A stretch of 31,378 nt of DNA from positions 1-31,378 of the IMG/VR virus record IMGVR_UViG_2648501787_000011; one strand, written 5' to 3'. The notes under the pieces were generated by a model. It made no database searches and was not told the DNA's origin. It saw only the letters and a program-made list of their open reading frames with translations. Each line of letters starts with the position of its first letter. Positions within the stretch are counted from its first letter, which is position 1. Both the position numbers and the translations under genes were made by a program. Origin of the DNA: a virus. Taxonomy: Duplodnaviria; Heunggongvirae; Uroviricota; Caudoviricetes. Positions 8,645-31,378 of this stretch are shown here, piece after piece.

Positions 8645-10120
8645 TTAAAGTTTGAACTGAATCAGGCCTGCCAGCACACGCAGCTGGTTCACCAGATTCG
8701 GGTGGCAGATAAAGTTCAGGCGGTTTTTATCACTGCTGTCGCGTGTCACCTGAAGCGTGTCCCTGTAATCGCTGAAGTTCTCCACAAGGCCCGCCGGGAG
8801 GAGTTCGGTCTGGCAGATATCCAGCAGCTCTGCGGTGCACAGCTTCGGCGTCATCACCGGCTGCCCCGCATCCAGCGAGTCCAGCACGTCATCGTCCGCC
8901 AGCTTGTGGCGCGGATAACGGTTCGTGAAACGGTTCTTGATGATGTAACGGATACGGCCCAGCGTGGCGGGTGACTGCACATCCAGGTACGACACATCCG
9001 CATCACCGTACTGATTAACCCGGTACATGGTGATTTCACGCTCGATGCAGACGTTATCCCCGGCGTCCACCATGTGCGTGGCAATGCCGTCATGCAGCAG
9101 CAGGTTACGTTCCGGCATATCCCAGCGAACATTACGCGCAGGCGGCAGAATGCCGGTCAGAACCAGCGTCTGAAGCGGACGCGCCGGGTCAATGGCAAGG
9201 TGATACGCTGCCGTTGCGCCGTATGACGCGGCCCACATCCACGCCGGGTGCGGTGACAGGTTGGTGCCGATACAGCTAATCAGCCAGTCATTGCGGGTTT
9301 CACCAAACGTGCCGGTTTCCCCGTGCGTGCCACGAAACGCTGTCCACAGCTGCGCCTCCATCATTTTGAGCGGCCCCCAGCGATTCAGCAGTTCATCACG
9401 CAGGGTGTTCAGGCTTTTCGTGTCGGTGAACGGGGCGATGATATCGGTAAACCACTCCGGGCCGATGGCCGCAACGGCATCCGCCATTTCCGGTGTCCCG
9501 GTGCCGTCGGTAAACGCGGTTGCGGTCACCTTCACACCTGCCGGGAAGGCTTCACCGGTGTAGTAGTTCAGGCGAACGTCGGCACCGTTGCCGGTGACGC
9601 CGTGCCAGTTCACGGTCAGCTCCACGGTATCCGTGGCATCATCCTTCACCGCAGCGGCCACCTGCGTGGCAGGCTTTTTCGTCACCGCATCAGCAATGGC
9701 TTTTGCAATGTTTTCCTTCGTAGCCCCGGCGCTCACGCTCACCTGAACGGACACACCGTTAATCAGCAGTGCCACCGTTCCGGCTTCAGTCGCTGTCCCC
9801 AGCACGGTCAGCGTGGCTTTTGCGGCAGCGCCTTCAGGCGCGGCAACCGGCATTGCCCAGGTTTCCGTGTACGTGTTGGCACGGCGCAGCATTTTGAGCA
9901 TTTCAGCCAGCATCGACCCTTTGCCATAAAGCTGGTCTGCCTGGCTGTCACTGGTGATGCGGGTCAGTGACAGGGCGTCTGCGCTGCCGGACGATACCGC
10001 ATGGCCCATGACCAGAATTTTTCGGCTTTGCGCGGATGCACCATCCAGCGCCTGTGAATTGTCGATATCGATCCAGACAAGCGGGACGCGGATATCATCA
10101 GGAATTGAACCCAGCGACAT
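8645..10120 (-). CDS. Contractile tail sheath protein, Mu gp39 (L)-like
   Basis: 491 aa; position and size match Mu L; followed by tube gene. Confidence 0.85.
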   Translation of the reverse strand: MSLGSIPDDIRVPLVWIDIDNSQALDGASAQSRKILVMGHAVSSGSADALSLTRITSDSQADQLYGKGSMLAEMLKMLRRANTYTETWAMPVAAPEGAAAKATLTVLGTATEAGTVALLINGVSVQVSVSAGATKENIAKAIADAVTKKPATQVAAAVKDDATDTVELTVNWHGVTGNGADVRLNYYTGEAFPAGVKVTATAFTDGTGTPEMADAVAAIGPEWFTDIIAPFTDTKSLNTLRDELLNRWGPLKMMEAQLWTAFRGTHGETGTFGETRNDWLISCIGTNLSPHPAWMWAASYGATAAYHLAIDPARPLQTLVLTGILPPARNVRWDMPERNLLLHDGIATHMVDAGDNVCIEREITMYRVNQYGDADVSYLDVQSPATLGRIRYIIKNRFTNRYPRHKLADDDVLDSLDAGQPVMTPKLCTAELLDICQTELLPAGLVENFSDYRDTLQVTRDSSDKNRLNFICHPNLVNQLRVLAGLIQFKL

Positions 10121-19059: not shown

Positions 19060-19353
19060 TCAGTCCCTCGCACGGGGTTTTTTAACGCCCGGAACGCTGG
19101 ACAGGCCGTTTGCCACATCCTCGCCGCTGCCGGTGATTTCAGCCACGTAACAGCCGCCCACATCAGACAGACGAACCAGCCCCTGCTCGCGAAGCCATGC
19201 AAGCTGAGTGCGCACCACATCACGGGATACCTTATGACCGTAAGCCTGAAGGCAGGTCTGCAACACGGATTCATTCGCGCTGTCGCCACAGTCCAGCAGG
19301 GAACGCAGCAACACCAGACGACGGTCTTCAGTGAGGATCTCTTTCATCGCCAT
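19060..19353 (-). CDS. Hypothetical protein, possible winged-helix DNA-binding
   Basis: 97 aa; segment KVSRDVVRTQLAWLREQGLV resembles a recognition helix/wing; function unknown. Confidence 0.45.
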   Translation of the reverse strand: MAMKEILTEDRRLVLLRSLLDCGDSANESVLQTCLQAYGHKVSRDVVRTQLAWLREQGLVRLSDVGGCYVAEITGSGEDVANGLSSVPGVKKPRARD

Positions 19354-19658
19354 TAATTTTTTTCCTTTAACTCGTTCTCTAATAACAAATCGCTGATGCG
19401 GGATACCTGGCGGATGGATGGCCCCAGTTCTTTGATTTCTCCCCGCAGATTGCTGATATCCAGTTGCAGGCGGTGGAACTCATCACGGTCGGGTAAATGG
19501 TGTACCTGGCTTTCCACCACCGACACGCGGGAACGGAGTGAATCAAACTCTTCGCGTTTGACGTAGGTTTTCGCCAGAATCAACTGAAGCAGGTTTATTC
19601 CTGTCATCAGCAATGCCCACAGAATGGGCCAGTTGGCTCTGATCATTTCCCAGGACAC
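19353..19658 (-). CDS. Membrane-anchored coiled-coil protein (spanin/releasin-like candidate)
   Basis: 101 aa; N-terminal hydrophobic helix (WPILWALLMTGINLLQLIL) followed by coiled-coil; in lysis cluster. Confidence 0.5.
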   Translation of the reverse strand: MSWEMIRANWPILWALLMTGINLLQLILAKTYVKREEFDSLRSRVSVVESQVHHLPDRDEFHRLQLDISNLRGEIKELGPSIRQVSRISDLLLENELKEKN

Positions 19659-19870
19659 GTTTTCCTCCTGCGTTCCCGAATATGCTGACAGTCAATACAG
19701 GTCACCACATCCGGCAGCGCCGCAAGGCGTTGTGCCGGAATAACGTTCCCACAGTCATTGCAGCAGCCCCGACTATGGGGCGCTTCTTTTGTCCGCGTCT
19801 GCCAGGCGTTAACGACGCTCTGACGTTCGTTCATAACCACTTCACTGATGCGGTCGATTTCGTCGGTCAT
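19643..19870 (-). CDS. TraR/DksA-family C4 zinc-finger protein
   Basis: 75 aa with CCNDCGNVIP...CIDCQ (CxxC-N17-CxxC) motif characteristic of TraR/DksA-type zinc fingers. Confidence 0.6.
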   Translation of the reverse strand: MTDEIDRISEVVMNERQSVVNAWQTRTKEAPHSRGCCNDCGNVIPAQRLAALPDVVTCIDCQHIRERRRKTCPGK

Positions 19871-20475
19871 TTCGGCCCCGCAGACATTTTGTGACGGCTC
19901 GATTTGCTGTACCGGGCAAAGCCGTCCATGGTTCTTACTCCGAGATAGCCCAGCGCCGGGGTAAGCAACATCAGCGTGATATCCCAGTCCGGTGACGGCA
20001 TATGCAGTGTGATACCTCTGGCACCGGCAATGGCTCCGGCAATCTGGCCACAGGAGAGCAACAGCACATAGGTCAGACTGCTGTAACAGGAAAGACGGGC
20101 CAGCAGCGGGCGCGTCTGGCGCACATAGCTGTCCGCAGCGTTGTCACCATTGCGGATGGTTTCCTGCTGTTCGTGATGCGCGGCCTGCTCGTCAGCCAGC
20201 ACCAGCTTCTGCCGTTCCACCTCAAGCTGTTGTAACTGGACTTTCAGCGTTTCCAGTTGCATCAGTTGCTCCGGTGACAACGCCGTCAGTTGTTGTTCCA
20301 GAATGCGTTGCTGTTCGGTAACCGGCAGGCTTTCCCGGACGCTTTCCACCATACCGGCCACCGAGTCAGCGGCGGCAGATGTGCTACCACCAAACCAGCG
20401 CCCGACGGAACGAATCAGCCCCGGCCCGGCTTTCAGCAGAACAGAGGCGATGCCTGAAAGGGTTAACGGATCCAT
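19867..20475 (-). CDS. Hypothetical coiled-coil protein with C-terminal transmembrane segments (lysis-associated candidate)
   Basis: 202 aa; Q/L-rich coiled-coil centre; two hydrophobic helices near C-terminus. Confidence 0.5.
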   Translation of the reverse strand: MDPLTLSGIASVLLKAGPGLIRSVGRWFGGSTSAAADSVAGMVESVRESLPVTEQQRILEQQLTALSPEQLMQLETLKVQLQQLEVERQKLVLADEQAAHHEQQETIRNGDNAADSYVRQTRPLLARLSCYSSLTYVLLLSCGQIAGAIAGARGITLHMPSPDWDITLMLLTPALGYLGVRTMDGFARYSKSSRHKMSAGPK

Positions 20476-20873
20476 GAATCCCCCTTATGAAAACTGCGCT
20501 GATGTTTATAAAGTGCCGCGCAAAAGATACCGCCCAGCCAGAACGCCAGCTGATAAGGCTCCTTCAGATAAAGAAGGCCGAATGTCAGCATGAAAAGACC
20601 AACGGCCCAGACCACCCATGACCACACGACAATTCGAAGGGAGGCGGCCCGGAAACGCCTTTTGGGTTGCAGGCGATAAGGTACGTTGCCCAGCGGGAAA
20701 CTGTGAATCAGGCAGAGTGTCGCGCCGTATGCCAGCACCATGACCGCAAACGCCCGCCATCCGGCAAAACAGCTTGCCAGAAAAAGTACTGCCGACAGTC
20801 CCAGAAACGACCACTGGCACAACATAAAGCGGGAGTAAATAACGCGAACAAAAAGACTATTCATTCTGTGCAT
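20463..20873 (-). CDS. Polytopic membrane protein (holin-like candidate)
   Basis: About 136 aa from ATG 20873 (AAGGA 8 nt upstream) with 3-4 predicted TM helices. Track ORF extends to 21044 but that part overlaps the preceding ORF and is Arg/Trp-rich. Confidence 0.5.
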   Translation of the reverse strand: MHRMNSLFVRVIYSRFMLCQWSFLGLSAVLFLASCFAGWRAFAVMVLAYGATLCLIHSFPLGNVPYRLQPKRRFRAASLRIVVWSWVVWAVGLFMLTFGLLYLKEPYQLAFWLGGIFCAALYKHQRSFHKGDSWIR

Positions 20874-21084
20874 TGAGTTTTTCCTTGTACTTCTGGCACT
20901 GCCAGAAAATGTCCCGTGTATCCACGGAGTTCCAGCCACGCATGTAGTAGCTGGCGTGTGTACCGTCATGACCGGTATAGTCCACCGGCTCTGGCGGCGG
21001 ACCTCCGGCCATACGATGTAAAACCTCCTGACGCAGGCGGTCACGCCGCCCGGCTCTCAGCGAGGCATCCCAGCCTTTACCCAT
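20857..21084 (-). CDS. Hypothetical protein immediately downstream of endolysin
   Basis: 75 aa; start ~2 nt after the endolysin stop; no TM segment or lipobox. Confidence 0.4.
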   Translation of the reverse strand: MGKGWDASLRAGRRDRLRQEVLHRMAGGPPPEPVDYTGHDGTHASYYMRGWNSVDTRDIFWQCQKYKEKLNAQNE

Positions 21085-21085
21085 A

Positions 21086-21682
21086 TCACCCCCGCGTGGC
21101 GGACATGATGCCTAAAGGGGTATCGATGATTTCCAGACAGGCGTCGGTCAGCTTTTCCATGCGGTTAAACCAGCCGTTCAGGTATTTACCCTGGGCGGGT
21201 TTTGACTTGATGATGTCGGCATAAAAGCGGGAACGACGGACAATGCAGCGGGCCAGCAACCAGTCCGGGGTGGACAGACTCACGGCCTTACGGGTACGCG
21301 GGCCGATGATGCCGTCAGCATCCACATCAGCGGCTTCCTGCAAAATCCTGATAGCTTTTTTAACGCCATGCTGAACGGCTGCATCGAACACAAACATCGC
21401 CACGCCATCAGGCCACTGGTCACATCCGGCAGGCAGCCAGTAATCGCGCCAGTAAATCTGCGCGACCTGTTCGCGGGTTAAATCCCTGATGCGGGTATCC
21501 GGTTTACCGTCGCCGCTGACATCGGTTTTGCCGTCAATCACACCGTCGCGGCGGTCAGAAATGCCGTATTTGGTTTCGCCGCCACGGTCAGTGGGGTCAT
21601 TGACATAGACGCCTTCGATATCGGGACGCAGAATAAAATTCAGCGCATGTTCAAAGGCCGGGGAGAATTTCAGATTTTCCAT
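21086..21682 (-). CDS. Endolysin, GH108-type N-terminal domain plus peptidoglycan-binding domain
   Basis: 198 aa; N-terminal motif IEGVYVNDPTDRGGETKYGISD matches the GH108 signature EGGY-N...D-GG-T-YGI; no N-terminal hydrophobic SAR segment; AGGTG RBS 7 nt upstream. Confidence 0.75.
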   Translation of the reverse strand: MENLKFSPAFEHALNFILRPDIEGVYVNDPTDRGGETKYGISDRRDGVIDGKTDVSGDGKPDTRIRDLTREQVAQIYWRDYWLPAGCDQWPDGVAMFVFDAAVQHGVKKAIRILQEAADVDADGIIGPRTRKAVSLSTPDWLLARCIVRRSRFYADIIKSKPAQGKYLNGWFNRMEKLTDACLEIIDTPLGIMSATRG

Positions 21683-21737
21683 AAAAGCACCTGTGAAGCA
21701 GATTTAAACGTGGTCTGTTTCATGGTGCCGGAGGCAT

Positions 21738-21761
21738 AAAAAAAGCCGGATTTACCGGCTT
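21738..21761 (-). terminator. Rho-independent terminator (minus strand) between secreted-protein gene and lys
   Basis: Same AAGCCGG-TAAAT-CCGGCTT hairpin plus T7 tract as at 14177-14200 (27-nt identity). Confidence 0.6.
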
Positions 21762-21781
21762 CATTGAATTAAAAAAGATGA

Positions 21782-22261
21782 CTACTCATCACCTTTGATG
21801 GAGCAATCTATTACCATATCGTTACCCATCTTGAGAAATTTGGTTTGCATGAGAAAACCCTGTATCACATCAGTTAACCCATACCCTTCAACTTTTGTAG
21901 CTGAAACTACCATGTCAATAATTCGTTTCTGCTGTTTCTCTGTTAGTTCGCCAATTGCTGACTCCGCAACTCGCGAGCATGCCACAAAAGAAGACAACAC
22001 ACCTGAAGGATTGTTTTCATAATCCTTCACTGTCGTCGTTGAGCTGACGACTTTATTGTTGATCGTAAATACCCCGAATTTACTGTGGGCAGTTTCTGTT
22101 CCACCGTTCTTAATTGAATCGCCCCCTTTAAGAGGCTTCCAGCTATTTAGTGCAATGAGGTCTTTTTCTGTAAGACGTTTTTTGATGACATCTTCAGCTG
22201 GCAGTTTTGCCGCATTCGCGCAAAATACGCCCAGTAAAAGTATAAGAGGAAAGTATTTCAT
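21782..22261 (-). CDS. AT-rich secreted/periplasmic protein of unknown function (moron candidate)
   Basis: 159 aa with clear signal peptide MKYFPLILLLGVFCANA; lower GC than flanking phage genes; ATG overlaps the mor stop (ATGA). Confidence 0.65.
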   Translation of the reverse strand: MKYFPLILLLGVFCANAAKLPAEDVIKKRLTEKDLIALNSWKPLKGGDSIKNGGTETAHSKFGVFTINNKVVSSTTTVKDYENNPSGVLSSFVACSRVAESAIGELTEKQQKRIIDMVVSATKVEGYGLTDVIQGFLMQTKFLKMGNDMVIDCSIKGDE

Positions 22262-22659
22262 GACTCATCCTTAAATAGTTGCATTTGATATTTTTCACGC
22301 TCCAGTCGGCGCATTCTTTTGATGGCCTGATATACCGTTTTGTATGTCACTTTGTAACGCTGCACCAGCTCCGCTACGTTTTTCCCATCAAAATCATGCC
22401 AGATGCGCATGTCTCTGATAAGATTTTCCAGTATTTTCCCTTTCGGAACATATACCTGAATCCCACCGATATGATTGCAAATCGCCACTACCAGCTCAAG
22501 GGAGTGGGCAGGGTTAACTCCAAGCCTTATCAGCTCCTGTCGCAACAGAGCATTCAGCTCAGCCAGTAAAGATGGGAATCCCGATTTTTCCTGAACATCA
22601 TCAAAATATTCAAGGATACTGTCGTCCTGATAATCACCAAATAAATCTAGCTCTTTCAT
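22258..22659 (-). CDS. mor: Mor/C-family transcriptional activator (Mor by position)
   Basis: 133 aa; C-terminal HTH GKNVAELVQRYKVTYKTVYQAIKRMRR and N-terminal LFGDYQDD resemble Mu Mor; ATGA overlap with upstream gemA-like gene. Confidence 0.75.
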   Translation of the reverse strand: MKELDLFGDYQDDSILEYFDDVQEKSGFPSLLAELNALLRQELIRLGVNPAHSLELVVAICNHIGGIQVYVPKGKILENLIRDMRIWHDFDGKNVAELVQRYKVTYKTVYQAIKRMRRLEREKYQMQLFKDES

Positions 22660-23207
22660 AGAACTATTCTCCCGCTGTTTCTGGCGCGGGCATACGCACT
22701 GGTCAGTGCATCATATCCGCGCAGTTCCCGCCCGGTTTCGCTCACAGGTAAAGGCACGCCATGTCGGGCAAAGGCTTCCCGAATGCAGCGCATATGCCAC
22801 TGTTTGAGCGTTTCGAGCACAACCTGCAACGATTCCCCATGACACCAGGCAAGCGTGGAAACACCCTGACCGCCATTACGTCTGGCCGTCAGGCGTTCAA
22901 CGTATTTGTCCAGCGCGACGTCGCTGATATCGGAGACGAAACCATCAAGAAACATCTGCTGCCAGATTTTATAAATCTTCTCGCGCGGTGTGACATACCC
23001 CTTAAAGCGACGGCGGGGATGTTTTTTCTGCTTCTTAAAACCGCGCTCTTTCATGGCATTGAGCACCTGTTCCAGTTGTGTAACGGACAGCTCGCGGCAA
23101 CTGGTCTTGCCCGTGCACTGCACCAGAAAGGCGCGGTAAGTGTCATCGTCGAGGTGCAACTCCCGGCGGGCAACATGAATTAATTTAATCAGGGATGTGC
23201 GGCTCAT
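22656..23207 (-). CDS. gemA: GemA-like protein (Mu gp16)
   Basis: 183 aa; directly upstream of mor with overlapping stop/start, as gemA-mor in Mu. Confidence 0.6.
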   Translation of the reverse strand: MSRTSLIKLIHVARRELHLDDDTYRAFLVQCTGKTSCRELSVTQLEQVLNAMKERGFKKQKKHPRRRFKGYVTPREKIYKIWQQMFLDGFVSDISDVALDKYVERLTARRNGGQGVSTLAWCHGESLQVVLETLKQWHMRCIREAFARHGVPLPVSETGRELRGYDALTSAYARARNSGRIVL

Positions 23208-23520
23208 TATGTCCCCCGGATTTAAAAATTAATTCAGTGTTGAATAGCTCTTTACTCATTCGCTGTAGCACATCAAGGGCGGCAACTGCCGCCACTTTAT
23301 CCTGGCTGGCAATGATTCCCCGCAACTCTTCGATAATCCATGCAGGACTTAATGATTCAGCAATCATCATGCGCTTTTCTGAAATTAAATTTTCTCTGGC
23401 CTGCTCAAAGTGCTGGTATACAACATTATCCAGAAAATAATTTACATCTTGTTCTGACATACCACTGGAAATTAAGGTTGCAGCCATTAAATCAGCATCA
23501 GTAATCATCTGTATTTTCAT
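23185..23520 (-). CDS. AT-rich hypothetical protein (early accessory region)
   Basis: About 111 aa from ATG 23520 (GAGG 9 nt upstream); AT-rich relative to neighbouring phage genes; no recognisable motif. Confidence 0.45.
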   Translation of the reverse strand: MKIQMITDADLMAATLISSGMSEQDVNYFLDNVVYQHFEQARENLISEKRMMIAESLSPAWIIEELRGIIASQDKVAAVAALDVLQRMSKELFNTELIFKSGGHNEPHIPD

Positions 23521-23695
23521 TTCGTAATACCTCTTCGCAATAAAAGATTTCACCGGGATAACGTTTTTGTATGCGCTCCATCACCTGCATACATGCCTGC
23601 TCTGTGGGCCAGATTTTTTCTGTTACCGGGATAGCATCACAGGCATCATTCCCGCAGGTGCCAACCAGCAGGACAAAGCCAATTGACTTAATCAT
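23498..23695 (-). CDS. Small Cys-containing signal-peptide protein (possible lipoprotein / exclusion-type protein)
   Basis: About 65 aa from ATG 23695 (MIKSIGFVLLVGTCGNDACD...); hydrophobic N-terminus followed by Cys; four Cys in total. Confidence 0.4.
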   Translation of the reverse strand: MIKSIGFVLLVGTCGNDACDAIPVTEKIWPTEQACMQVMERIQKRYPGEIFYCEEVLRNENTDDY

Positions 23696-29521: not shown

Positions 29522-30046
29522 ATGATGTCTTTTGAAATCAAAGAATGGTTTAATGCGAAAGAGCTGGAAGGGATGCCTGGTGTACCAAAGTTGGCGACTA
29601 ACATTACCAGGAAAGCTGTGGCGGAAGATTGGGTAAAACGTCAGCGTCACGGTGGGAAAGGTGTCGCTTATGAGTATCACATCAACAGTCTGCCAGAAGA
29701 AACACGCAGGGCCATTAAAGGAGCCTCACTTTCTGATAAACCAGTGCATACATCAATCGCCCATACAGTTGATGAGAGGCTAATTTATGCAATGAGCTTC
29801 TTAACACCAGATGAGCAGGCCGCAGCTGTGGAGATCATTCGTGTAGCAGGGATTAAAGGTCTTATGCCTACAATTGTCAGTAAAGATAAGGCATTAGAGG
29901 CATTAGGGATTACTGTGGAGCAACAGAAAACCCTGCAAACTCTTCAGGCATTACCACCGGAAAAAGTGAGAGAGATTTTGTCTCAGTATGAAGGCAAAGA
30001 ACATAATTTCCCTGTAAGAGAAAACGATGTAAAGAAGGCTGTATAA
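29522..30046 (+). CDS. c: Repressor c (Mu/D108 immunity repressor)
   Basis: 174 aa on opposite strand to early operon, between operator and attL; N-terminus shares a DNA-binding domain with A ([26 protein letters not shown]); C-terminus LPPEKVREILSQYEG...KKAV resembles Mu c. Confidence 0.85.
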   Translation: MMSFEIKEWFNAKELEGMPGVPKLATNITRKAVAEDWVKRQRHGGKGVAYEYHINSLPEETRRAIKGASLSDKPVHTSIAHTVDERLIYAMSFLTPDEQAAAVEIIRVAGIKGLMPTIVSKDKALEALGITVEQQKTLQTLQALPPEKVREILSQYEGKEHNFPVRENDVKKAV

Positions 30047-30179: not shown

Positions 30180-30385
30180 AAGCTGTACTTGAAATGATGC
30201 GTGAAGTAATTGCTTTTCGTGTCTTTAATGAATCAAAAGCTGTTTCCAACAATCTTTCGCGTTTCAAGATGTAACGGCTAAAATCTATCCTACAGGCTTG
30301 CAAGCCCCGCTAAATCTAATCCCGCCAAATCCCGAATAATCCAATGTCCTCCCGGTTTTTTTCGTACTTCACGTGAATCAATACA
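30180..30385 (-). repeat. Mu-type left end (attL) with MuA-binding sites
   Basis: Reverse complement starts TGTATTGATTCACGTGAAGTACGAAAA (L1-like); second site around 30258-30275 contains TGAAACGCGAAAG (L2-like); further CGAAAA repeat inward. Confidence 0.8.
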
Positions 30386-30397
30386 ATGTTCAATTCC

Positions 30398-31378
30398 TTA
30401 CTTACTGATAAGACGGTCAAGGGCGACAGCCGCGATAATTAATCCGCCCATCACCACCAGTTGGTAATAGGTTTGTACCTGCAAAATATTCAGACCGTTG
30501 TTGATGGTGCCGATGATCAACCCGCCAATCACCACAGAGAAAATGCGCCCCTTGCCGCCGAAGAAACTGGTGCCGCCAATGATGGCGCTGGCAATGGCAT
30601 AGGTTTCAAAACCCATACCGGCAAGCGGTTCTGCGGCACCGAGTCGTGCAGTTGAGACGACGCCTGCCAGACCTGCACAAACACCGGAGATGATAAACAC
30701 CACCAGGATGTGGAATTTCACGTCAATCCCGGAATAGAACGCCGAGTTTTTGTTGCCGCCCAGTGCGTAGATGTTGCGCCCGAGCCGCATACGCGTTGTC
30801 AGAAACCAAAGGATGAGCGCGACAATTAGCGAGAAGATAACGGGGACAGGTATCCCAATTACGCTGGCGGCAAAGAAGTTCACGAAGTCAAATGAGAAGC
30901 CGTATACCGAGTTGGCATCGGAGATCACCAGCGTGATCCCACGGAAAATAGCGTTGGTGCCAAGGGTGATAATGAACGGGTGTAGTCCCGTCCAGTTGAC
31001 CAGGCAGCCGTTGATCGCCCCCAGTGCGCCGCCAACCAGTACACCGCCAATCAGCGCCGCGAGAAACGGATCAATACCTGCCAACATCAGTTTAGCGGTC
31101 ACCATACCGGAAAGCGCCAGAATCGCGCCAACCGAAAGGTCGATACCAGCGACCAGGATAGCGAAAAACTCGCCCATGCCGATCAATACCGTCACGGAGC
31201 TTTGCACAAAAATCTGGGTAATATTATTGGTGGTCAGAAAATATTCTGACGACAGCGAACCAAAAATGGCGACGATGATTGCCAGGATAAAAAAGGTGCC
31301 GTATTTATCCCAGAACAGCGCAAAGTTGAACGGTTTCTTCTCGCTCGCTTCGCTTTTTACTCTTGTGGTAAAGCCCAT
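30398..31378 (-). CDS. Host sugar ABC transporter permease (RbsC/AlsC family)
   Basis: 326 aa polytopic membrane protein; start codon is the last 3 nt of the window. Length and family fit a D-allose/ribose-type permease, but the gene name is not verifiable here. Confidence 0.85.
   Translation of the reverse strand: MGFTTRVKSEASEKKPFNFALFWDKYGTFFILAIIVAIFGSLSSEYFLTTNNITQIFVQSSVTVLIGMGEFFAILVAGIDLSVGAILALSGMVTAKLMLAGIDPFLAALIGGVLVGGALGAINGCLVNWTGLHPFIITLGTNAIFRGITLVISDANSVYGFSFDFVNFFAASVIGIPVPVIFSLIVALILWFLTTRMRLGRNIYALGGNKNSAFYSGIDVKFHILVVFIISGVCAGLAGVVSTARLGAAEPLAGMGFETYAIASAIIGGTSFFGGKGRIFSVVIGGLIIGTINNGLNILQVQTYYQLVVMGGLIIAAVALDRLISK

Follow-up and report, generated by a model that had tools for sequence, protein, structure and literature searches.

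A Gene for a Predicted Periplasmic Protein Occupies a Swappable Slot 3′ of mor in an Escherichia coli Mu-like Prophage

The 31,378-nucleotide stretch of DNA analyzed here (the window) represents an E. coli Mu-like prophage whose early operon ends in an accessory gene for a predicted exported protein. This gene, the type A cargo (21782..22261, minus strand; an open reading frame with an ATG start, encoding a 159-aa precursor), occupies a slot bounded by the mor stop codon on one side and by a hairpin of the phage backbone on the other. Closely related prophages carry in the same slot this gene, a gene for a different exported protein or nothing. The protein family, its fold and the exact hot-spot, from the mor stop to the Pm-type hairpin, appear to be undescribed in the libraries and literature searched. 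What the protein does is a matter for a tentative proposal, which is developed below together with its alternatives.

Read along the minus strand, the gene order of the prophage is repressor, transposase A, B, gam, gemA, mor, target, lys, and morphogenesis genes. From about position 30386 (in the piece 30250-31378) onward, the window matches alsC/alsA/alsE of E. coli with 100% identity, which indicates that the prophage is inserted in the D-allose operon of the chromosome. A repressor gene (29522-30046, plus strand) lies at the als-junction end. Just upstream of gemA, a second strongly AT-rich early ORF of 122 aa (23185-23553, minus strand; GC 0.396) gave no significant family match. The corresponding stretch differs in the prophage of strain UMNF18, and the early operon may have a further site for cargo here.

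The original prediction of a 159-aa reading frame was confirmed on the minus strand, and the plus strand of the same interval holds just two short ORFs, neither of them supported. The predicted overlap with the mor stop was likewise read directly from the sequence: the ATG of the target gene (22261..22259) and the TGA of mor (22260..22258) together form ATGA, which appears on the plus strand at 22258-22261 as tcat. A Shine-Dalgarno sequence, AAGGA (22272..22268, minus strand), is located within the 3′ end of mor, 6 nt 5′ of the ATG. The GC content of the target gene is 0.415 as compared to 0.542 for the window, at the third percentile of 480-bp windows. The gene had been described as much more AT-rich than its flanking genes, which holds against lys (0.556) but not against its upstream neighbor mor, which is also low (0.43). 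The low-GC block is mor plus target, not the target gene alone.

Low GC and the lack of a known domain would also be expected of a spurious or nonfunctional ORF in AT-rich spacer DNA, but the pattern of conservation effectively refutes this reading, whose probability we regard as negligible. Against the UMNF18 allele (98% aa identity) the dN/dS of the target gene is 0.03, and against the TD225-C4 allele (79% aa and 81% nt identity) it is 0.13, with a dS of 0.8. Overall, type A genes give values of 0.03-0.14 with dS reaching 0.8, indicative of purifying selection. Full-length homologs with 19%–32% identity occupy the same slot, the AlphaFold2 (AF2) model is confident and the Shine-Dalgarno sequence is good, all of which argue against a spurious frame. 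The 81% nucleotide identity between type A alleles might suggest a fast-evolving arms-race gene. This candidate was rejected because the high dS, together with a dN/dS of 0.13, points to the exchange of diverged alleles and not to positive selection.

The flanking genes identify the position of the slot. Upstream, mor (22258..22659, minus strand; PF08765, E 2e-30) is the only Mor/C-family activator in the window. It matches Mu Mor with a phmmer E value of 3.7e-53 and Mu C with 2.6e-16, and phmmer searches with Mu Mor and C found no second Mor/C homolog and no C gene in the 31-kb window. Downstream, lys (21086..21682, minus strand) encodes an endolysin with a GH108 muramidase domain (PF05838, E 1e-23) and a PG_binding_3 domain (PF09374, E 2.9e-17), assigned to phrog_315, endolysin. 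A homolog of Mu gp18 is found at 20857-21084 (minus strand; phmmer 6.8e-34), after the endolysin gene. In Mu, gp18 is the first middle gene, ahead of C and lys, so the gene order around lys is rearranged here relative to Mu.

Immediately 3′ of the target gene, a terminator scan detected a hairpin, GAAGCCGGTAAATCCGGCTTT, with a T-run, an intrinsic terminator (21735..21765, minus strand) that is near-identical in relatives and in Mu. Its arms, GAAGCCGG and CCGGCTTT, enclose TAAAT and are followed by TTTTAT (21762..21742, minus strand). The scan found 7 terminators where 2.9 were expected, which taken alone is weak evidence, and the intergenic RNA folds with a z score of −3.99. When the intergenic regions of 11 loci were aligned, the hairpin GAAGCCGGTAAATCCGGCTTTTTTTAT proved to be essentially invariant in prophages with type A, type B, or an empty slot, and it matches TAAAGCCGGTTAATCCGGCTTTTTTTAC of Mu. 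The Mu record annotates the matching hairpin both as a terminator (9179-9200) and within the Mor-activated promoter Pm (9163-9233), directly after mor. Its presence in empty-slot prophages and in Mu makes it an element of the backbone and not part of the cassette. The terminator that had been predicted to follow the gene immediately is thus present as a hairpin and T-run, but it is not the gene's own. In genome contigs, the hairpin pattern picked up mainly generic terminators of no relation to this phage, from Bacteroidota and other groups; Mu-like loci numbered only about 14, in Enterobacterales.

Across the stop codon of the target gene lies another hairpin, which is AT-rich and followed by UUUUUU (21774..21796, minus strand; RNA fold of 21683-21800). 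It is specific to the cassette and, with the backbone hairpin, gives two tandem terminator-like structures. Its significance is doubtful, and its sequence is altered in UMNF18.

The backbone hairpin also overlaps a putative activator site. The dyad bound by Mor is 16 bp long, with two 5-bp repeats around a G/C-rich hexamer, and lies at −51 to −36 of Pm (PMC4287176; PMC4390567). From the GenBank annotation of Mu and this published geometry, the Mu dyad would be AGTAA-AGCCGG-TTAAT and its counterpart in the window AATGA-AGCCGG-TAAAT (21765..21750, minus strand), which overlaps the backbone hairpin. A candidate −10 element, CACCAT (21722..21727, minus strand), would drive lys, the first gene 3′ of this Pm-like promoter. 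The clade consensus in the alignment of 11 loci, cAcnAT, is conserved at the spacing from the dyad where the presumed −10 of Mu Pm falls. A σ70 scan did not detect CACCAT, as expected for an activator-dependent promoter. The downstream promoter is therefore likely to depend on Mor, judging from its sequence elements.

This arrangement alters the assignment of the gene. It had been placed in the middle-operon slot; however, it lies upstream of the Pm-type hairpin, and the gp18 homolog is located elsewhere, at 20857-21084. The position of the target gene makes it the last early gene. We read the architecture as an early operon ending in gemA-mor-cargo, followed by the terminator and Mor-dependent promoter and then by lys and the late genes. 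The co-expression with mor that had been proposed for an accessory gene with a predicted exported product is supported.

The window and Mu share the same landmark. In Mu, mor is followed by the hairpin AAAGCCGGTTAATCCGGCTTTTTTT inside the Mor-activated Pm with nothing between them, whereas here the cargo has been inserted at this point, upstream of the promoter. Unlike Mu, the window phage lacks a C gene, and its Pm-like promoter lies immediately next to lys. The single Mor/C gene and the position of the Pm-like promoter suggest a two-tier, early-to-late cascade instead of the early-middle-late cascade of Mu; the window phage would be a Mu relative apparently without the Mor-to-C step. The target is not a homolog of Mu gp18-20, and phmmer searches with Mu gp18, C, and Mor gave no match to it. 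Mu also places nonessential membrane proteins between mor and lys (PMC9239132).

The slot is polymorphic among closely related prophages. Type A was found between mor and lys in 24 complete E. coli genomes and type B, a 165-aa exported protein, in nine; in about 13 others the slot is empty, and mor is followed by 85 bp and then by lys. The flanks are 90%–97% identical across these states. The mor and lys genes of the window are closest to those of a type B prophage (97.5% and 96% nt identity, respectively), which indicates that the cassettes are exchanged on one backbone. The original prediction had proposed presence or absence in related Mu-like prophages as a check, and the outcome is positive. 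Mu itself has no such gene at this position, and the target was absent from all 50,697 phage records of the "phages" collection (blastn distant mode, tblastn).

Every family locus that was read for synteny (P0011, P0014, and P0009; the type-A-like loci of Raoultella, Serratia, and Brenneria; and two more) lies between a Mor gene and a GH108 + PG_binding_3 endolysin gene in a Mu-like prophage; the family is restricted to this slot. Type B members of Citrobacter and of metagenomes are found in the same slot. The BLASTP likeness between type B (WP_032084919-like, 165 aa) and type A is confined to the signal peptide. Profile alignment with hhalign covered 145 columns at a probability of 79.5% and an E value of 1.5e-5 and placed W41, C95, and C153 in register. 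Type B shares with type A the signal peptide and a W...C...C pattern. Type B is possibly related to type A. A third kind of cargo, type C, is a protein of 103-110 aa with three predicted transmembrane (TM) helices, encoded between mor and the hairpin in prophages of Klebsiella, Raoultella, Kluyvera, Brenneria, and Serratia (L021, L042, L060, L073, L078, and L084). It belongs to no recognized family, corresponds to phrog_36430, of unknown function, and has a GC content of 0.32-0.36 in the three loci measured; complete E. coli genomes gave no instance of it. Cargo of each of the three types is AT-rich (GC 0.32-0.41, as compared to 0.52-0.58 for lys).

The unit of exchange seems to include mor. 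In two empty-slot E. coli prophages (L004 and L005), mor encodes 149 aa, more than in the window, shares only 71% identity with the window's mor and has a normal GC content (0.51), while gemA and lys are still 94%–97% identical. Such recombination may explain why mor is AT-rich in the cargo-bearing prophages. The tail fibers are far more mosaic than the remainder of these prophages. The tail-fiber region of the UMNF18 prophage (L098, record 3113464-3117936), which is followed by com/mom homologs, is unique in its distal parts among 5,426 E. coli genomes. No usable link between cargo type and tail fiber emerged: the UMNF18 fiber is mosaic, with its nearest relatives in empty-slot and type B prophages, and the window has no fiber genes. 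The polymorphism of the slot strongly implies that the target protein is dispensable for the phage and interchangeable with other envelope proteins.

The gene had been described as carrying the signature of a moron. Its distribution among close phages (24 type A, 9 type B, and about 13 empty) and its foreign composition (0.415 as compared to 0.542, although mor is at 0.43) agree with that description; however, no promoter of its own was found, and the hairpin belongs to the backbone. Like the morons of Hendrix and Juhala, the target gene is patchy in near-identical genomes, low in GC and not part of the core life cycle, and its product is directed to the envelope. Unlike them, it is coupled to the preceding regulatory gene mor and uses the early terminator of the backbone. 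Lacking a promoter and terminator of its own, it is better called operon-embedded cargo. An accessory envelope protein in a mosaic hot-spot is a well-known kind of thing, and accessory cargo at operon ends is familiar in temperate phages, so that the finding is no conceptual surprise.

A classical moron acting in lysogenic conversion, expressed from a promoter within mor and of benefit to the host, for instance in envelope stress, by serum or lysozyme resistance or by excluding phages constitutively, would account for the AT-rich foreign composition, the presence/absence polymorphism and the predicted export of the product. The Mu record annotates a "semi-early" promoter upstream of gemA, so transcription from other than the main early promoter is conceivable. 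Against this, no σ70-like promoter was found from the start of mor to the target gene by a consensus-match scan, which could miss a weak promoter, and since the target start overlaps or abuts mor in all relatives, there is no room for one. The only σ70-like match on the minus strand of 21000-23400 lies within gemA (22966-22994). With fewer matches than the shuffle expectation, this one is probably due to chance; no other candidate exists, however, for transcribing mor and the cargo independently of the main early promoter. As the terminator is not part of the cassette and the protein has no match to the lysozyme inhibitors Ivy, MliC/PliC, or PliG, we consider lysogenic conversion quite unlikely.

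The N terminus of the target protein has the layout of a Sec signal peptide cleaved by signal peptidase I, as had been predicted. The n-h-c arrangement and A-x-A motif were judged by rule and inspection. MK is followed by a core of 12 hydrophobic residues, YFPLILLLGVFC, and by ANA|AKLP, with small residues at −3 and −1. The predicted signal peptide comprises codons 1-17, MKYFPLILLLGVFCANA (22211..22261, minus strand), ahead of AKLP. Hydropathy on the Kyte-Doolittle scale peaks at 2.46 across residues 6-16, and the confidence of the AF2 model is low at residues 1-20. The same layout is found in nearly all of the 19 type-A-like proteins; those of L041, L052, and L094 have a hydrophobic N terminus with no clear A-x-A site. 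The protein is thus predicted to be exported by Sec and cleaved after ANA, and the exactly two conserved cysteines in every mature family protein count toward this prediction. A lipoprotein was considered and rejected: the residues around Cys14 are G-V-F-C and not an L-[AS]-[GA]-C lipobox, and Cys14 is not conserved, being serine in P0004 and P0005 and missing from many family members.

The family is small. A word-indexed search of 5.8 billion proteins returned six clusters, all at least 73% identical, and an exhaustive profile search of 1.84 billion representatives gave just 11 matches. The distant homologs are 150-170 aa long, have 19%–32% identity, and each carry an N-terminal signal sequence. 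P21, W41, C95, and C153 are invariant in the family alignment, and the mature proteins have exactly two cysteines each, 58-63 residues apart. That no family had been recognized at first agrees with the database searches: Pfam, NCBIfam, and PADLOC gave no match to the target protein, and the sole PHROGs match was phrog_38744, of unknown function. A PDB sequence search returned only noise (E 0.24), and single-protein scans of IMG/VR with P0007 and P0012 found no match.

The first AF2 model, built from a shallow alignment of seven sequences, reached a pLDDT of only 53. With the distant members from the exhaustive HMM search added, this rose to 84.8, and the predicted fold is a small α/β domain with the two invariant cysteines, C95 and C153. 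The comparison class for this predicted fold is the PAS-like, or periplasmic sensor (PDC-type), α/β domains. The mature protein would be a compact, possibly PAS-like α/β domain of roughly 15 kDa, in which C95 and C153 probably form one disulfide. The family alignment has no catalytic-looking conserved residues, implying a noncatalytic protein that most likely acts by binding something in the envelope.

The endolysin is the next gene in all of the at least 10 contexts examined, and the target protein is predicted to reside in the periplasm, where the endolysin acts. A lysis-associated protein that tunes lysis timing by regulating or inhibiting the GH108 endolysin encoded next door, or the holin/releasin system, would fit this neighborhood, and a lysis-related role is possible from synteny alone. 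The synteny, however, may just reflect the shared ancestry of the phage clade, and several observations make such a role very improbable. The terminator and promoter that separate early from lysis genes place the target gene on the early side; closely related prophages have an empty slot; and a 3-TM type C protein fills it elsewhere. Nor does the endolysin vary with the cargo: its amino acid sequence is 97.5%–99% identical in prophages with type A′, with type B, or with no cargo. Furthermore, the endolysin of the window has no signal or SAR sequence and would be retained in the cytoplasm anyway. The suggestion of a lysozyme or endolysin inhibitor is therefore not borne out. Neither by sequence nor by fold is the target a member of the periplasmic lysozyme inhibitors Ivy, MliC/PliC, or PliG/PliI, and endolysins that are about 99% identical occur with A′, B, or no cargo. 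Further along the minus strand, the window encodes a 202-aa protein with a weak match to a 3-TM holin (19867-20475) and a homolog of the DUF2730 "releasin" (19353-19658; E 3.6e-30). A releasin paired with a cytoplasmic GH108 endolysin matches the unexplained situation, a releasin without a SAR endolysin, noted in PMC9239132.

The profile of the target fits a factor that interferes at the level of the envelope. The protein is probably a nonessential accessory factor of the envelope, outside both the lysis and the regulatory machinery. Its gene would be transcribed as the last of the early operon, from a swappable slot between the mor stop and the early terminator and Mor-dependent promoter of this E. 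coli Mu-like prophage, and translated by coupling to mor. As the last early gene, coupled to mor, it would be expressed soon after infection or induction, before the lysis and structural genes. The precursor would be exported by Sec and cut after ANA, and the mature protein of about 15 kDa would fold in the periplasm as a possibly PAS-like α/β domain, probably with one C95-C153 disulfide. There it would bind some envelope component and, during phage production, keep superinfecting or competing phages from penetrating the envelope or delivering their DNA. That the target is a periplasmic binding protein made early to exclude other phages is our favored guess, held with less than even confidence. 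Of the roles suggested originally, superinfection exclusion is the most plausible.

The best-understood analogy is with phage T4. Spackle is a small periplasmic protein with a cleavable signal peptide that is made early and blocks superinfecting phage (PMC7677548). The target resembles Spackle in its size, signal peptide, early expression, and periplasmic location, as predicted for it here, and Spackle is the functional model that we favor. The target differs in its predicted α/β fold with a putative disulfide and in that no tail lysozyme target is known in this phage. Spackle was absent from the PDB sequence and fold matches of the target, and we know of no sequence or fold similarity between the two. 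T4 Imm and P1 Sim are presumably further examples of exclusion akin to the proposed role. A search by tblastn in 50,697 phage records, PDB sequence and fold comparison, and PADLOC revealed no homology to T4 Sp or Imm, P1 Sim, P22 SieA, Cor, or Llp. These negatives lower the case that the target is a member of such a family, not that it works like one.

Exclusion genes also have precedents in the early operons of transposable phages, as in gene 10 of the Pseudomonas phage Fc02 (PMC9936078). Fc02, D3112, and DMS3 offer a likeness to the phage of the window in that these Mu-like phages carry, embedded in their early lytic operon, accessory genes that block superinfection. D3112 Tip and DMS3 Aqs1, which we take to be further early-operon exclusion genes of Pseudomonas transposable phages, presumably act in the cytoplasm on pilus assembly. 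The target, unlike Tip and Aqs1, is predicted to be exported; it is unrelated in sequence to these exclusion genes and lies at the distal end of its operon.

Further points weigh against exclusion or restrict it. Exclusion proteins often show the signature of an arms race, whereas type A is under strong purifying selection; the swapping of cassettes could, however, stand in for such a race. Because the early operon is repressed in the lysogen, only induced or infected cells would benefit from exclusion, barring an undetected promoter. The same data are compatible with a role in host takeover or counter-defense, in which the target would neutralize a host envelope component in lytic growth to the benefit of the phage's own development and not to exclude others. 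Candidates would be a peptidoglycan-remodeling enzyme, a periplasmic protease, or an envelope-sensing or DNA-entry-blocking defense system. The early timing with mor and the predicted binder-like fold without catalytic residues agree with such a role, and dispensability and cassette diversity are as expected of host-strain-specific counter-measures. The mor-lys interval of Mu also encodes nonessential membrane proteins, gp19 and gp20 (PMC9239132). However, the target bears no likeness to known anti-defense proteins, and the present data fit the exclusion model just as well. We consider a takeover or counter-defense role unlikely.

For Enterobacterales, the mor stop, cargo, and AGCCGG-N5-CCGGCT hairpin provide a precise and easily recognized landmark for mining such genes in Mu-like prophages. 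In its most general form, and more doubtfully, GH108-type Mu-like phages may use the junction between mor and the Mor promoter as a hot-spot dedicated to "envelope cargo." At least three unrelated or barely related proteins (A and B periplasmic, C with 3 TM helices) would rotate through it, with type A founding a new periplasmic family whose new, disulfide-stabilized fold prevents the entry of phage DNA or disables a defense of the envelope during the lytic cycle. To our knowledge, few envelope-level proteins of phage-phage interference are understood mechanistically, and the list is short. If exclusion or counter-defense is indeed their role, a new periplasmic family and two sister cargos would join it.
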